Positions 48,788 to 54,512 of a stretch of DNA of 64,000 nucleotides are shown here, in pieces. The stretch comes from Rhodospirillales bacterium (GTDB taxonomy: Bacteria; Pseudomonadota; Alphaproteobacteria; Rhodospirillales; JANQFP01), in the NCBI GenBank assembly GCA_028277795.1, contig JANQFP010000252.1, positions 22,490 through 86,489 on the forward strand, given 5' to 3'. Positions within the stretch are counted from its first letter, which is position 1, and each line of letters starts with the position of its first letter. The notes beneath the pieces were generated by a model, which was not told the origin of the DNA, made no database searches, and saw only the letters and a program-made list of their open reading frames with translations. A program made the position numbers and the translations under genes.

Positions 48788-49147
48788 CTATTCCGTATCG
48801 GCCGGCAACGGCTTGGGCAGGCCGGCGATCTTGGCGAGCTGCTTGTCGGGACCGTAGGGAAACAGCTTGTAGAGGTAGCGGTCCACCTCGTGGCGGGCCT
48901 CGCCGTGCTTCTTGATCAGGTGGTGGCTCAGGACCGCGACCAGATCGTGGGTGCTGGGGTGCCGGCCCCTGTCGTGATAGAACTCGCGCGCCGCCTCCAC
49001 CAGGCCCCAGTGGGTCTCGGTCATGTCGAGCTTCTCGGCCTGGGCGATGGAGGTGGCCACCGCCTCGCTCCAGTCGCCGATATCCTTGAGGTACCCCTCC
49101 TCGTCCGTCTCGACGGTCCTGCCGCCAACTTCGATTGCCATCTGCAT
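48788..49147 (-). CDS. TusE/DsrC/DsvC-family protein lacking the C-terminal cysteines
   Basis: DEEGYLKDIGDWSE ... THWGLVEAAREFY ... LYKLFPYGPDKQLAKIAGLPKP matches the family. It ends LPADTE instead of the usual x-G-C-V tail. Confidence 0.75.
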   Translation of the reverse strand: MQMAIEVGGRTVETDEEGYLKDIGDWSEAVATSIAQAEKLDMTETHWGLVEAAREFYHDRGRHPSTHDLVAVLSHHLIKKHGEARHEVDRYLYKLFPYGPDKQLAKIAGLPKPLPADTE

Positions 49148-49241
49148 TCCCCCCGGTTTGCTGGCACTGGGCCGGCCCCCGCCGGCCGCCAAAGGCCCGG
49201 AGTATAGGCCGCCGGCCGGCGCTGATCCAGGCGGAGCGGTA

Positions 49242-49634
49242 TCAGTATGCGGCGTACGACTTTTCTTCGATCAGGTGCGAGCCGAGAAGCTCGTTGATGG
49301 CCCGTTTGACGGCGGCCCGGTGGTCGTTGCTGTGGTAGACGCTGCGCGCCAGGTCGACGAACCGGGGCCCGAAATCGCCCGCCCGCTCGCAGTCGCGGAT
49401 GGCGTCCTCGATCTCCCACAGGCGCCCGTTGATCACCTTGAGGTCCGCGGTCAGCGCCGTCAGCTCGGGCGTGGTCGGCAGCGTCTCGTCGCGGGCGGCG
49501 ACCAGGACGTCCAGCTCGGTGCGCACGTTGGCCCGCTTGGCCGCATCGTCCATGCGCTCGAGCTTGATCTCCAGGATGGTGATCTTGTCGATCAGCTCGC
49601 CGGGCGAGATGTCGACGGTGACGGAGACGGGCAT
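49242..49634 (-). CDS. conserved hypothetical protein (possibly DUF6165-like)
   Basis: 130-aa ORF with good codon bias. Family assignment is from memory only. Confidence 0.5.
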   Translation of the reverse strand: MPVSVTVDISPGELIDKITILEIKLERMDDAAKRANVRTELDVLVAARDETLPTTPELTALTADLKVINGRLWEIEDAIRDCERAGDFGPRFVDLARSVYHSNDHRAAVKRAINELLGSHLIEEKSYAAY

Positions 49635-49698: not shown

Positions 49699-50505
49699 TC
49701 AAGCGGCGTGACCGGCGGCCAGCGCGTCGTCCAGGAAATCGGCGATGCAGTCGGCCACCTCGCGCCAGCGGGTCTCCAGCATCATGGCATGGGCCATGCC
49801 GTCGAACATGACGGCCTCGGTGCCGAAGGAGTCGGCCGTCATCCTGACCGCATGGACAGGGACGAACACGTCGTTGCCGACGCCCATCACCAGCACCGGC
49901 AGGTCCGGGCGCCCGCGCCAGCGCGGCATGCCGAAGCCCAACAGGTCCCAGGCGATGCGGCCCGATTCGCCCCGGGTTCGGGCCAGGTAGCGGTGGGCCA
50001 GCTCGTCCGGCAGGTCGTCGGAGAACAGGGCCCGGCGCATGACCCGGAAATCGGCGCTGTCGGGACCGTGGCTCTGCATCTTGGCCAATTCGCGGAATAC
50101 CGCCGGATGGCGCATGGCCATGGCCATGGTGGAGCCGACCATGCCGTGGGGCGGCGCCGACGCCATGAGCACCGCGGCCGGGACCCGGTGGTTGTGGATG
50201 TGGGCCTGCACCACGCCGCCGCCCATGGAATGTCCGATCAGCGCCGGTGGCGCCGGCAGGTCGGCGACCACCGACGCCAGGTCGGCCGCATAGTCGTCGA
50301 GGCTCGCCGCGGCCAGCCGCTCGGCCCCCTCGCTCGCGCCGTGCCCGCGCAGGCTGAGGGCGTAGGCGGCGTATCCGCGCTCGGCGAAATAGGGCAGGAA
50401 GTGCACGTCCCAGATCCACGCCGCGGCGAAGGCGCCGTGGACGAACAGCAGCGGCACCGGCCGCGCCGCGCCGCGCGGACGGCGGCTGATGACTTCGAGC
50501 TTCAT
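49699..50505 (-). CDS. alpha/beta-fold hydrolase
   Basis: Nucleophile elbow GHSMGG, with HG oxyanion region (LLFVHGAF). Confidence 0.8.
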   Translation of the reverse strand: MKLEVISRRPRGAARPVPLLFVHGAFAAAWIWDVHFLPYFAERGYAAYALSLRGHGASEGAERLAAASLDDYAADLASVVADLPAPPALIGHSMGGGVVQAHIHNHRVPAAVLMASAPPHGMVGSTMAMAMRHPAVFRELAKMQSHGPDSADFRVMRRALFSDDLPDELAHRYLARTRGESGRIAWDLLGFGMPRWRGRPDLPVLVMGVGNDVFVPVHAVRMTADSFGTEAVMFDGMAHAMMLETRWREVADCIADFLDDALAAGHAA

Positions 50506-50557: not shown

Positions 50558-50706
50558 GGCAACTCCACCCGTCCGGTCAACCGGCGCGGTTGGCTTGCCG
50601 GGGGTCGGCACCGGATGCTCGCGTCCGCGCTCCGCCATGGGGAACCTGGAGACGTCATGATTGCCGTCACCGACTCCATCGTCTTGCGTCTTGGACGACG
50701 CGGAGA
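50558..50706. repeat. direct repeat A (left boundary of quorum-sensing islet); contains a duplicated arfB promoter and 5' end
   Basis: Aligns by eye with 53988-54130 at high identity, including ATGATTGCCGTCACCGACTCCATCGTC. Antisense track ORFs from the two loci share DGVGDGNHDV.RFPM.ERGREHPVPTPGK. Confidence 0.8.
50657..50706 (+). pseudogene. arfB 5' fragment (truncated or decayed duplicate)
   Basis: Encodes MIAVTDSIVL, identical to the intact ArfB N-terminus. A 6-nt insertion follows and similarity then decays rapidly. No GGQ motif follows. Confidence 0.65.
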
Positions 50707-51111
50707 TACGGGAAGATCGAGTCTGTGCCCTGATGGCGCGGCCCGCCAGACACACGGCGACTGCCCGCTTGAAGCGGTCCCCCGCGCTACGACTTGGCAC
50801 GAGATCTCCCGTCCGCCACGAGCTCCGCCGCCTTCAGGCCGCCTTACAGGCCTCTACCCTTCTGCTCCCGCAATGGATGGTTTGGCGAGACGGGCGGTGA
50901 GAAGCTGCAAGGCCGACAGCTTGCACCGTGCCACCTTCTCATCCATAGTTGTAAATAGCCCTGCTCGTGGTCGGGCGCTGCGCGCTCAACATCGTTGCCG
51001 CGCCCGGGAGTCGCGCGCGCCGCCGTCGATGCCAACTGTCAGGTGATCGCCGTCTCAGGACAATCATGATGATCTTTCCGCACGGGCCCTAGTAGGGGGG
51101 GAGACCGAGCC

Positions 51112-51871: not shown

Positions 51872-51889
51872 TAGACCAAAATTGGTCTA
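51872..51889. promoter_or_regulatory. lux-box-like inverted repeat TAGACCAA-AA-TTGGTCTA upstream of luxI
   Basis: The 8-bp arms are perfectly complementary. It is centred ~65 nt upstream of the luxI ATG, in the luxR-luxI spacer. Confidence 0.5.
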
Positions 51890-51944
51890 GTGCAGAAAAT
51901 TAACATCCGGTGTCTCCTCGACCGCGTTGTCGAGGGGATATCTG

Positions 51945-52589
51945 ATGATCGAAATCTACTCACACGCGCAATTTCTGGATAGGCCCGACAGGGCCCATCA
52001 GCTGTTTTCGCAGCGCTACGAGATCTTCGTCCAGCGGCTGGGGTGGGCCCTTCCCACGCGCGGCTATTACGAATTTGACCAGTTCGACGACGACAGCGCG
52101 GTCTACATCCTGAGGCTGGACGACCAGGGTCAGTTATGCGGCTCCTGCCGCGTTTTGCCGACCACCGGCAGCTACATGTTGTCGGGCGTCTTCCGCTCGC
52201 TGTTGGGCACCGAGGAGGCGCCTCACTCGTCCGGTATTCTTGAGCTGAGCAGGTTCTGCATCGATACCAAGGCAGGGCCAGGCGCGGCGCCGGGCAGGAA
52301 CTGTCGCGTTACGACCGAGCTGTTTGCGGCCGTGGTCGATTATTCGCTGCGCCAAAGTGCGACGGATGTCCTTGCGGTCGTCAACTTGCCGATTCTCCGC
52401 ATCATACGCCGGCTCATCGGCGGCGAACCGGAATGGCGCGGCCCCCTCCGAGATCTGAACGGGACTCGATGCGTCGCCATCCGGTTCCCGGTCACCGATT
52501 GGATGCTTGCGCGGCTCCACGACCAGCTGCGCACACCGCTGGTTCATGCCGATGCAACTGAATCCCGATCGGTAATGAGGGCGGCATGA
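51945..52589 (+). CDS. luxI: acyl-homoserine-lactone synthase (LuxI family)
   Basis: Conserved LuxI residues visible: RYEIFVQRLGW, EFDQFDD, CRVLPTTG, ELSRF. ATG 51945 (the track ORF starts at 51927). Confidence 0.85.
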   Translation: MIEIYSHAQFLDRPDRAHQLFSQRYEIFVQRLGWALPTRGYYEFDQFDDDSAVYILRLDDQGQLCGSCRVLPTTGSYMLSGVFRSLLGTEEAPHSSGILELSRFCIDTKAGPGAAPGRNCRVTTELFAAVVDYSLRQSATDVLAVVNLPILRIIRRLIGGEPEWRGPLRDLNGTRCVAIRFPVTDWMLARLHDQLRTPLVHADATESRSVMRAA

Positions 52590-52864
52590 CCAGGAATACC
52601 AAAGGTCAAGCTGATCCGCCGAACAGCGAGAACGATGACCCCATCGACTGTCATGAAGACTGTGTCCGGACGCTTGGCGGATTCGCTTCGGCGCTCTGCT
52701 ACCTGGCCACCGAGGCCAAACAGGCGGGATGGCATAGGACGCATGAACATCTGGAAGAGAGCTACGCCACGTTTATCGATGAAATTCAATGCAGTGAAAC
52801 AGGGATTCCGACCCTGCCGCAGCTGCGGCTGCTGCTGAAGGCAAAGAGGGATGAGTTGAGTTGA
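52586..52864 (+). CDS. hypothetical small protein translationally coupled to luxI
   Basis: ATGA overlap with the luxI stop. 92 aa, acidic and Cys-containing. No family recognised. Confidence 0.45.
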   Translation: MTRNTKGQADPPNSENDDPIDCHEDCVRTLGGFASALCYLATEAKQAGWHRTHEHLEESYATFIDEIQCSETGIPTLPQLRLLLKAKRDELS

Positions 52865-53029
52865 CGGAATAAGCGTGAAGGCAGCGAGCAACCTGCGGGC
52901 TGCCGACCGGGCCGGGAAATGAACCTCCGGCCCTTCTCCTAAGGGACTTCGCCGGCTCCATGAGAGCCGAAACCGGGAGTGGAGCGACTTCCGGTAACGG
53001 GATCGCTCGCATTGAGGAGGATACGGAAG

Positions 53030-53941
53030 ATGGCCGAAGTGACCTACTTGGAACCGACCGCAAGCGTCGAGGAGCTGGTAAGCACCCTTAACCGTGACGG
53101 TTGCGCCGTCGTCAAGAATCTGGCGTCCCGTACAACCATCGATGCCGTGAAACGCGACATCGAGCCGTATCTTGCCAGGACCCCGAATGCGCACGGGCCG
53201 TTTGTGGGGTATTCCACAAAACGCACCAGCGGGGCCTTCAAAAAGGCCCCCAGTTCGATTGGCCTGGCCATGGACCCGCTCGTTCTTGGCGGAATGGATG
53301 CGATCCTCGGACCCAATTGCAGCCGCTTCCAAATCAACCTGACGCAGTTCATCTCCCTACAGCCCGGACAGAGAGCCCAGATCTTTCATCGTGACGACAA
53401 CATGTTCGGGCCCCATCACAAGCCCTTCCAGTACCTGATCAACGTCGTCTGGGCGATCGACGACTTCACCGAAGAGAACGGTGCCACCGTCGTCGCGCCG
53501 GGCAGCCACACCTGGTCCGAGGAACGCATGCCGGAGCCTCACGAGACGTGCATAGCGGAGATGGAACGGGGATCGGCGCTTCTGTTTCTGGGCTCGTTCA
53601 AGCACGGAGCAGGCGCCAACAACTCGAAACGGCCGCGCCTGGGCCTTGTCATCAGCTACTGCCTCGGCTGGCTGCGCCAATACGAAAATCAGTATCTCAC
53701 CATGCCCCCTTCGATCGCCAAGGGGCTGCCGGACGATTTTCTGCGGCTACTCGGATATAGCATTCACGAGCCGAATCTAGGTGTCTATGAAGGGCAGGAT
53801 CCGCTTGTCGTGTTCAGCGACGAATGCTCGGACACCATGCAGGCGCGGGACTATTTCTCACCGGAACTCACGGCCCGCGTCGAGGAGTACTACGCTTCGC
53901 TCGAAAACGGTGACCAGTCCGACATCACCCGAGCGGCGTAA
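53030..53941 (+). CDS. PhyH-family Fe(II)/2-oxoglutarate dioxygenase (quorum-sensing islet)
   Basis: HxD motif (IFHRDD), distal His (FKHGAGAN) and Arg. ATG 53030 (MAEVTYLEP). Confidence 0.8.
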   Translation: MAEVTYLEPTASVEELVSTLNRDGCAVVKNLASRTTIDAVKRDIEPYLARTPNAHGPFVGYSTKRTSGAFKKAPSSIGLAMDPLVLGGMDAILGPNCSRFQINLTQFISLQPGQRAQIFHRDDNMFGPHHKPFQYLINVVWAIDDFTEENGATVVAPGSHTWSEERMPEPHETCIAEMERGSALLFLGSFKHGAGANNSKRPRLGLVISYCLGWLRQYENQYLTMPPSIAKGLPDDFLRLLGYSIHEPNLGVYEGQDPLVVFSDECSDTMQARDYFSPELTARVEEYYASLENGDQSDITRAA

Positions 53942-53987: not shown

Positions 53988-54130
53988 GGCAATTCCGCCC
54001 GCCCGGTGAACCGGTGCGGTTGACTTGCCCGGGGTCGGCACAGGATGCTCGCGCCCGCGTTCCATCATCGGGAACCTGGCGACGTCATGATTGCCGTCAC
54101 CGACTCCATCGTCCTGGACGACGCGGAAAT
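53988..54130. repeat. direct repeat B (right boundary of quorum-sensing islet); native arfB promoter and 5' end
   Basis: See repeat A. The two copies are ~3.43 kb apart. Confidence 0.8.
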
Positions 54131-54512
54131 CCGCGAGACCTTCGTGCGCGCCCCCGGCCCCGGCGGGCAGAACGTCAACAAGGTGGCGACGGCGGTGCAG
54201 CTCCGTTTCGACGTGGCCGGCTCGCCGTCCCTGCCGGAAGCGGTGCGGGCCCGCCTGATCCGCCTCGCCGGGCGGCGGCTGACGGCCGACGGCGAGTTGG
54301 TCATTCGCGCCCACCGCTTCCGCACTCGGGAGCAGAACCGGCGCGACGCCCGGGCGCGACTGGTTGCCCTCATCCGTCAGGCGGCCGAGCGGCGCCGGCC
54401 GCGGCGTCCCACCCGACCCGGCCCCGCCGCCGTCCGCCGGCGCATGGAATCCAAACGCCGGCGCGGCGACGTCAAGCGCACCCGTGGACCGGTGCGACCC
54501 GACGACGACTGA
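54087..54512 (+). CDS. arfB: alternative ribosome-rescue factor ArfB (peptidyl-tRNA hydrolase, YaeJ family)
   Basis: GGQ motif (APGPGGQNVNKV) and basic C-terminal tail. Confidence 0.9.
   Translation: MIAVTDSIVLDDAEIRETFVRAPGPGGQNVNKVATAVQLRFDVAGSPSLPEAVRARLIRLAGRRLTADGELVIRAHRFRTREQNRRDARARLVALIRQAAERRRPRRPTRPGPAAVRRRMESKRRRGDVKRTRGPVRPDDD

Follow-up and report, generated by a model that had tools for sequence, protein, structure and literature searches.

We analyzed 64,000 nucleotides of DNA from a Rhodospirillales bacterium (NCBI GenBank assembly GCA_028277795.1, contig JANQFP010000252.1, positions 22,490 to 86,489 of the forward strand), hereafter the window, and focus on an islet of four genes with the order luxR-luxI-small open reading frame (ORF)-phyH, in which the genes for a receptor/regulator and an acyl-homoserine lactone (AHL) synthase are followed by a 92-amino-acid (aa) ORF and by the gene for a PhyH-family dioxygenase. 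All four genes lie on the forward strand (Table 1), and the coordinates assigned by an earlier reading of the same sequence, here called the original prediction, hold. The islet encodes an unnamed, conserved, LuxI-coupled small protein within a variant of a synteny that has been published and left unexplained. We interpret the locus as a horizontally acquired four-gene AHL quorum-sensing islet at the 5' end of arfB, and assign a probability of about 0.5 to this interpretation together with the mechanism proposed in the Discussion. Related loci are cited by number (L001 and so on).

Results

A conserved small gene is tied to luxI

The TGA stop codon of luxI and the ATG start codon of the small ORF share the tetranucleotide ATGA (52586-52589), with a Shine-Dalgarno-like GAGGG just 5' of it. 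The encoded protein is acidic (isoelectric point 4.89), and neither it nor any other group of small ORFs described below matched a Pfam or NCBIfam model (Pfam at E <= 0.01), so that the overlap, the acidity and the absence of a recognizable family all stand as the original prediction had them. Its remark that the protein does not resemble TraM likewise held, with no Pfam family at E <= 0.01 and no TraM among the 50 Foldseek matches listed.

A word-index search with the 92-aa protein returned only the protein itself, tblastn against plasmids gave no match, and an exhaustive phmmer search yielded two true relatives; a profile search delimited the family as 27 protein clusters among 5.8 billion; all lack a Pfam domain, and one comes from a metagenome-assembled genome (MAG) labelled Rhodospirillaceae that has the same gene order as the islet. 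An 18-residue match in a Planktophila MAG, obtained by scanning contigs with the core motif of the protein, GFAsA(L/I)CYLAxEAxxAGW, was rejected as spurious. These clusters divide into two types. Type A proteins (82-98 aa, motif GFAsA(I/L)CYLAxEAxrAGW) are encoded in the order luxR, luxI, small ORF, phyH in the window and in L001, L004, L008 and L012, while the L006 contig is cut before luxI and shows the small ORF and phyH only. Type B proteins (81 aa, motif AIQQCLEYLCYEAEAAQLPLAVHLIGAAAE) are encoded in L002, L003, L013, L014 and L015, where luxR and an oppositely oriented phyH precede luxI, small ORF, P450, MFP and MFS genes. The small ORF directly follows luxI in the 13 loci read, overlapping its stop codon or lying 12 nt beyond it, with the exception of L001, where it restarts 53 nt past the luxI stop.

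Codon analysis revealed purifying selection on the conserved core in both type A (nonsynonymous differences, pN, 0.16-0.30 against saturated synonymous differences, pS, of 0.55-0.96) and type B (pN 0.00-0.02 against pS 0.57-0.79), with omega at 0.04-0.19, or pN about 0. AlphaFold2 models proteins of both types as a two-helix hairpin, scoring above 90 in the predicted local distance difference test (pLDDT) over the conserved core (residues 31-60 in the window protein), and gives them a disordered acidic N-terminus; Foldseek found no match to the small protein in the PDB better than E 1.2. From the purifying selection and the confidently predicted fold we conclude that the small ORF is a genuine protein-coding gene, and its conserved position links it to luxI.

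Several individual copies merit mention. The C-terminal tail of the window protein (52780-52864) departs from the type A sequence RFRVYxNPER past a 1-nt indel near codon 66, and the alternative frame of this tail is not conserved either. In L001 (AT-rich; 1739-2065), the reading frame opened by the coupled GTG start meets a TAG at 1790-1792, and the conserved core, overlooked by the gene caller, restarts at a TTG at 1796; the gene may have decayed, the sequence may contain an error, or the protein may be shorter. The L008 contig carries the same small protein and gene order as the window islet and comes from the same sequencing run (SRR20820740, Logan) as the type B locus L002, placing both variants in one community.

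The luxI-phyH synteny extends beyond the Sphingomonadaceae

The order luxR-luxI-phyH has been published for the Sphingomonadaceae, where the role of PhyH is unexplained and speculated to be regulated by quorum sensing (PMC3704786, PMC4288048, PMC5012321), and the novR-novI-phyH arrangement known as topology T reads luxR-luxR-luxI-phyH-X-virB (Gan et al., 2013, 2015, 2016). The luxI-phyH pairing in the window is this published synteny, which the original prediction missed, extended beyond the Sphingomonadaceae. Sphingomonad plasmids carry PhyH copies, flanked by luxR and luxI, that share 37-42% identity with that of the window; in Sphingobium and Blastomonas, phyH adjoins or overlaps luxI, and no small ORF intervenes (a gap of 11 nt in L009, an overlap in L010). 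Two more homologs, at about 45% identity, are linked to luxI, each with a small ORF after it.

Scanning metagenomes with a PhyH alignment gave 80 loci at 39-48% identity. As these were the best-scoring of at least 580 matches, their linkage describes the closest relatives only: in the 31 informative loci, whose flanks are long enough to either side, luxI or luxR is present in 29 and luxI in 27. The gene orders found among the 80 were luxI then phyH (34 loci), phyH then luxR then luxI (14) and divergent luxI and phyH (3). About 20 of the 80 also carry an ORF of 55-136 aa, of several sequence groups, that begins at the luxI stop codon or overlaps it. These data support the view that luxI, the small ORF and phyH form a conserved module and not a chance neighborhood.

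Two candidate relatives of the small ORF were rejected. The 88-aa "hypothetical" ORF over the phyH start on Methylocystis iwaonis plasmid pSS37A-Re-2 (L011 3711-3977) is the C-terminal remnant of a LuxI whose gene was cut by an IS21 insertion, and the ORF "X" that follows phyH in Sphingobium encodes an unrelated secreted protein of a type IV secretion system region.

LuxR and LuxI match their families, and LuxI scores nearer to acyl-ACP enzymes

Both receptor domains are present in LuxR (Pfam PF03472 Autoind_bind, E 1.2e-27; PF00196 GerE, E 1.2e-15), which is 72-77% identical to the LuxR proteins of L001 and L012. LuxI matches PF00765 Autoind_synth (E 3.6e-32, 111.8 bits, cut-off 24), and TofI and LasI, its PDB matches at E 3.9e-25 and 5e-17, respectively, align with it across the R/F/W, E-D-D, R and ELSRF blocks; the Autoind_synth match and the TofI alignment thereby confirm the conserved blocks that had been read from the sequence. 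An NCBIfam model of TraI type matched LuxI below its cut-off.

TofI and LasI draw their acyl groups from acyl carrier protein (acyl-ACP), whereas RpaI and BjaI use acyl-coenzyme A (acyl-CoA). Judged by pairwise scores alone, LuxI is closer to the former pair (91.8 bits to TofI and 65.3 to LasI, against 41.7 to RpaI and 40.6 to BjaI), and this score comparison did not place it in the CoA-utilizing BjaI/RpaI/BraI clade. The idea of a CoA-linked donor raised in the original prediction is therefore not supported, and the closer similarity to TofI and LasI suggests an acyl-ACP donor, from which LuxI would make an ordinary acyl-HSL. L016 carries a gene for an AMP-binding, acyl-CoA ligase-like enzyme after its P450 gene; CoA chemistry is accordingly possible in that variant locus, and nothing in the window points there.

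PhyH resembles enzymes that act on free small molecules

PhyH matches PF05721 (E 7e-28, 98.8 bits, cut-off 22), and its ATG, preceded by a GGAGGA Shine-Dalgarno sequence, lies 165 nt past the small-ORF stop. H120-x-D122, H192 and R203 are invariant in 13 homologs; H120, D122 and H192 form the metal triad, and R203 is presumably the residue that binds 2-oxoglutarate, going by its spacing from H192 in comparison with PAHX. Both the distance and the HxD...H triad had been noted before and hold up under the Pfam match and the invariance of these residues.

By PDB sequence search, the closest solved relative is SwnH1 (E 2e-33), and the further relatives SwnH2, TlxJ, NvfE, SptF, AndA, PrhA, EasH, FtmOx1 and AsqJ extend the range to E 1e-8. 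All of these solved relatives tailor free small molecules, and phytanoyl-CoA hydroxylase, including the human enzyme, is absent from the 44 PDB matches at E <= 0.01. Going by these relatives, PhyH most likely oxidizes a free small molecule and not an acyl-CoA, and the link to acyl-CoA hydroxylation made in the original prediction is not supported.

Elements upstream of luxI and phyH suggest regulation

The perfect 8+2+8 palindrome TAGACCAAAATTGGTCTA ends 55 nt 5' of the luxI ATG, occurs once in the window where 0 occurrences are expected by chance, and is kept as ATAGACCAAAWTTGGTCTAGTGCA upstream of luxI in L001, L004 and L012, in which its flanks have diverged; we read it as a candidate lux box. 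A search that tolerated up to 3 mismatches found no second lux box upstream of phyH. Type B and type C loci have other lux-box-like palindromes in the divergent luxI-phyH intergenic region, that of type B being the conserved palindrome AACCTGGGAGAACTGCCAGGGT, and the third-variant loci (L016, L023) carry the lux-box-like TACCTGTCAATTCTGACAGCTA.

Between the candidate lux box and luxI lies a conserved RNA hairpin of 12 pairs, 2 of them with compensatory changes (RNAalifold, four loci), whose 3' arm includes the luxI Shine-Dalgarno sequence GAGGGG (51932-51937), suggesting translational control of LuxI synthase. No intrinsic terminator was found on the forward strand from luxI to the end of phyH. 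The GC-rich spacer between the small ORF and phyH contains several hairpins (folding z = -2.3 against shuffled sequence), no T-tract terminator and no Rfam match; across loci it varies in sequence and in length (about 89-165 nt) and keeps the element CCGG(C/T)AACGGG about 40 nt 5' of the phyH ATG. Its predicted minimum-energy fold pairs the phyH Shine-Dalgarno sequence with an upstream CUUCUCCU. In Blastomonas and Novispirillum, phyH overlaps the preceding gene. Co-transcription of phyH with luxI is thus plausible.

A direct repeat of the arfB 5' end brackets the islet

The islet spans 3.3 kb of low GC content (0.59 against 0.68 for the remainder of the window in the composition profile), and GC content at third codon positions is 0.63-0.76 in its genes, compared with 0.88 in arfB and 0.92 in an upstream alpha/beta hydrolase gene; the composition and the shared strand agree with the claim of the original prediction that the genes lie in one orientation within one islet. 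A repeat search identified a direct repeat on either side, with a 143-nt core that is 85% identical. The right copy comprises the upstream region and start of intact arfB. In the left copy, the arfB upstream region and its first codons (MIAVTDSIVL...) are duplicated in a decayed form that includes a 7-nt insertion. This bracketing by an arfB 5' duplication indicates that the islet was acquired horizontally at the 5' end of arfB. No integrase or transposase was found in the islet, and its leftmost part, between the repeat and luxR, has intermediate GC content and no convincing gene.

Table 1. Features of the islet and its borders, in window coordinates.
Feature	Position	Strand	Basis
Left direct-repeat copy	50558-50713	+	Repeat search; local alignment to 53988-54136
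Left islet part between repeat and luxR	50714-51111	.	ORF list; composition profile
luxR, receptor/regulator, 241 aa	51112-51837	+	Autoind_bind and GerE
Candidate lux box, perfect 8+2+8 palindrome TAGACCAAAATTGGTCTA	51872-51889	.	Pattern search; conservation
Conserved hairpin upstream of luxI	51910-51941	+	RNAalifold, four loci
luxI, acyl-homoserine-lactone synthase, 214 aa	51945-52589	+	Pfam Autoind_synth
Small ORF, 92 aa, acidic	52586-52864	+	ATGA overlap with luxI stop; conservation
Spacer between small ORF and phyH, 165 nt, GC-rich, several hairpins	52865-53029	+	Folding; alignment
phyH, PhyH-family Fe(II)/2-oxoglutarate dioxygenase, 303 aa	53030-53941	+	Pfam PhyH
Right direct-repeat copy	53988-54136	+	Upstream region and start of intact arfB
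arfB, intact, RF-1 domain	54087-54512	+	Pfam

To the left of the islet, positions 48788-49634 encode, on the reverse strand, a DsrC-like (PF04358) and a DUF6165 protein, and the alpha/beta hydrolase gene (49699-50505) follows; all three have host-like GC content and no evident link to quorum sensing. Rfam gave no match within the islet, and a weak match to the small RNA Xoo8 over the arfB start (54022-54186) scores 19.5 bits (E 0.014), below the gathering score of 90, and is probably due to chance.

XRE regulators recur beside the small ORF in related loci

Genes for XRE regulators of about 140 aa (HTH_3/HTH_31) lie beside the quorum-sensing genes in 16 of the 80 scan loci and in L018, 17 in total, and directly 3' of the small ORF in 8 of them. 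The scan-locus proteins are homologous to the XRE protein of Novispirillum sp. DQ9, in which the order is XRE, luxR, luxI, a 66-aa ORF and phyH. The presence of XRE genes directly beside the small ORF in many loci suggests pairs of small proteins and XRE regulators. Positions of such neighbors include 4581-5009 in L027, 5562-5981 in L028 and 1899-2327 in L018, and further cases are L029, L031, L053, L081, L092 and L097.

Among the other small-ORF groups, group G2 (about 80 aa, AMDFLRxEAxKTRI) is linked by profile comparison to type B (P 1e-4) and weakly to type A (P 0.08). In type B loci, of which L013 5517-12352 is an example, the MFP is of the RND type, and an MFS pump follows in all but L014 and L015, in which the contig breaks off earlier; the loci in L003, L013 and L014 adjoin F420 biosynthesis genes (cofC/D/E/GH). 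A third variant (L016 1-3826, L023 2392-4811) has luxI followed by an 86-aa ORF and a P450 gene, with a gene for a periplasmic SBP_bac_5 protein between phyH and luxR.

Discussion

From the gene identities, coupling, conservation and linkage established directly above, we infer the regulation of the islet, the partner of its small protein and the substrate of PhyH as follows. LuxR with its signal would act at the palindrome upstream of luxI and turn on a luxI-small ORF transcript that may extend through phyH, which would amount to positive autoregulation, and LuxI would supply the ordinary acyl-HSL expected of an acyl-ACP enzyme. With its translation coupled to that of luxI, the small ORF presumably yields its protein each time LuxI is synthesized. 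The two-helix hairpin would then serve as a signal-independent quorum output that binds and neutralizes another transcription factor, probably an XRE/PraR-type repressor encoded elsewhere in the host genome. PhyH would oxidize a free small molecule, for which the acyl-HSL itself, either tailored or turned over, is the most economical candidate.

The role proposed for the small protein draws on two precedents. CinS is encoded on one transcript with cinI and binds the XRE/HipB-type repressor PraR without need of AHL (PMC4149787, PMC5977203), and the 59-aa MmaP, co-transcribed with mmaI, binds a PraR ortholog (PMC10790750). Neither CinS nor MmaP binds LuxR or LuxI; by binding PraR they make a second regulatory output of luxI expression (PMC4149787, PMC10790750). 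By analogy, the window protein probably passes the quorum signal on to a further regulator, and we put the chances that it works in the manner of CinS and MmaP at roughly even. The original prediction had the small ORF possibly modulating LuxR or LuxI; the tie to luxI stands, and the precedents would redirect the target to an XRE regulator.

Several observations count against this interpretation. The islet lacks an XRE gene, and the 64-kb window holds no relative of the L018 XRE protein (best E 0.09). The likeness to CinS and MmaP is one of gene position, coupling and lack of a domain; a search for the cinIS locus in large Rhizobium plasmids led to two regions that, on examination, held other luxI genes. 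The predicted fold is a generic hairpin without a significant structural neighbor in the PDB, the profile links among types A, B and group G2 are weak, that between A and B (P about 4-7e-4, over one shared motif) being suggestive, and profile comparison detected no relationship of G3 or G4 to the other small-ORF groups. The structured 165-nt spacer could hold a separate phyH promoter, and NovI without phyH has been published to make C8-C12 AHLs and hydroxy-AHLs, as determined with 20 standards only.

Among the alternatives, the one that survives best follows the original prediction in having PhyH tailor the signal, here to a hydroxylated or desaturated acyl-HSL, and the small protein would couple LuxI to an oxygenase, PhyH or P450. 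It accounts for the association of PhyH with luxI or luxR in nearly all informative loci, for the placement of the small ORF between luxI and an oxygenase gene, which is phyH in type A and L018 and a P450 gene in types B and C, for the MFP and MFS exporter or AMP-binding ligase genes of some loci, and for the free small molecules on which solved PhyH relatives act. An adaptor role for the small protein is difficult to reconcile with sphingomonad luxI-phyH loci that have no small ORF and with other loci in which the small ORF follows luxI while phyH lies upstream of luxR, away from it; as each occurs without the other adjoining, the small protein tracks luxI, and often XRE, rather than the oxygenase. 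Nor has a modified AHL been reported from phyH-bearing sphingomonads, and we consider signal tailoring with such an adaptor unlikely.

We regard as somewhat less likely still the possibility that PhyH is a quorum-regulated output or housekeeping enzyme with a substrate unrelated to the signal and that the small ORF is an unrelated passenger. The role of PhyH is unexplained in the published sphingomonad systems as well, and NovI alone yields normal AHLs, both of which would fit such an enzyme; persistence of the linkage to luxI and luxR over three gene orders and at 39-48% identity would be unusual for an arbitrary target gene, and strong conservation of the small ORF and its coupling to luxI are not what a passenger would show.

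If the small protein instead acted as an anti-activator of its cognate LuxR, in the manner of TraM or QslA, its induction with luxI would create negative feedback. The protein is small, acidic, predicted to be helical and presumably co-induced with luxI, and traM is itself induced by the receptor that TraM inhibits. The empty Pfam search, which covered the TraM family, and the lack of a significant structural neighbor speak against this role, as does the fact that the recurrent neighbors in related loci are XRE regulators and not extra LuxR genes, and we judge it improbable, slightly more so than a signal-unrelated PhyH. The type B succession of small ORF, P450, MFP and MFS might evoke a ribosomally synthesized and post-translationally modified peptide whose precursor is modified by PhyH or P450 and exported by MFP/MFS, a reading we give very little credence since conservation lies in the folded central hairpin and not in a terminal core peptide, the C-terminal tails of the window, L001, P0126 and type B proteins are not related to each other, sphingomonad PhyH occurs without any small ORF, and many small-ORF loci have no P450 or exporter.

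Returning to the interpretation of the small protein as a quorum output directed at an XRE/PraR-type repressor, our results bear on a question that has stood since 2010-2013, the role of phyH beside luxI. Linkage of PhyH to luxI and luxR is near-obligate across this dioxygenase clade in environmental bacteria and no peculiarity of sphingomonads, which makes an AHL-directed activity worth direct testing. CinS and MmaP may be one instance of a broader, unannotated layer of quorum output made up of small proteins coupled to the synthase, which are often paired with XRE regulators and have been overlooked by gene callers and domain databases. A bolder extension, which we offer as a speculation and think improbable as a whole, is that the module, with P450, exporter and XRE genes in its variants, is a widespread and undescribed quorum-sensing unit in which PhyH converts the AHL to a new oxidized signal or an inactive form and the hairpin stands for a superfamily of signal-independent output adaptors, new and fast-evolving, to which CinS and MmaP would also belong.

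Comparison with known systems places each part of the islet. Window PhyH shares the HxD...H triad with SwnH1/H2, TlxJ, SptF, AndA, PrhA, FtmOx1 and AsqJ, but these fungal and bacterial tailoring dioxygenases belong to alkaloid or meroterpenoid pathways, whereas the window clade lies beside luxI and luxR. TraM, like the window protein, is small, helical and encoded in an alphaproteobacterial quorum-sensing locus; the two differ in that the window protein has no Pfam or structural match to it and is encoded after luxI, unlike traM, which adjoins traR. CinS (Rhizobium leguminosarum cinR-cinIS) and MmaP (Methylobacterium fujisawaense mmaI-mmaP) are, like the window protein, domain-less and encoded directly after a luxI-type gene, and the likeness extends to the coupling with luxI and to the XRE neighbor of related loci. 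MmaP, however, has 59 residues rather than 92, the published descriptions of cinIS and mmaI-mmaP cited here mention no adjacent PhyH gene, and CinS and MmaP act on PraR, whereas no XRE gene accompanies the small ORF in the islet or elsewhere in the window. In the novR-novI-phyH loci, as in the window, a homologous phyH shares its orientation with luxR and luxI, and these loci often lie on mobile DNA; their hosts are sphingomonads and no gene separates luxI from phyH, whereas in the window, from a non-sphingomonad host of about 70% GC, a 92-aa gene coupled to luxI and a 165-nt spacer stand between the two.

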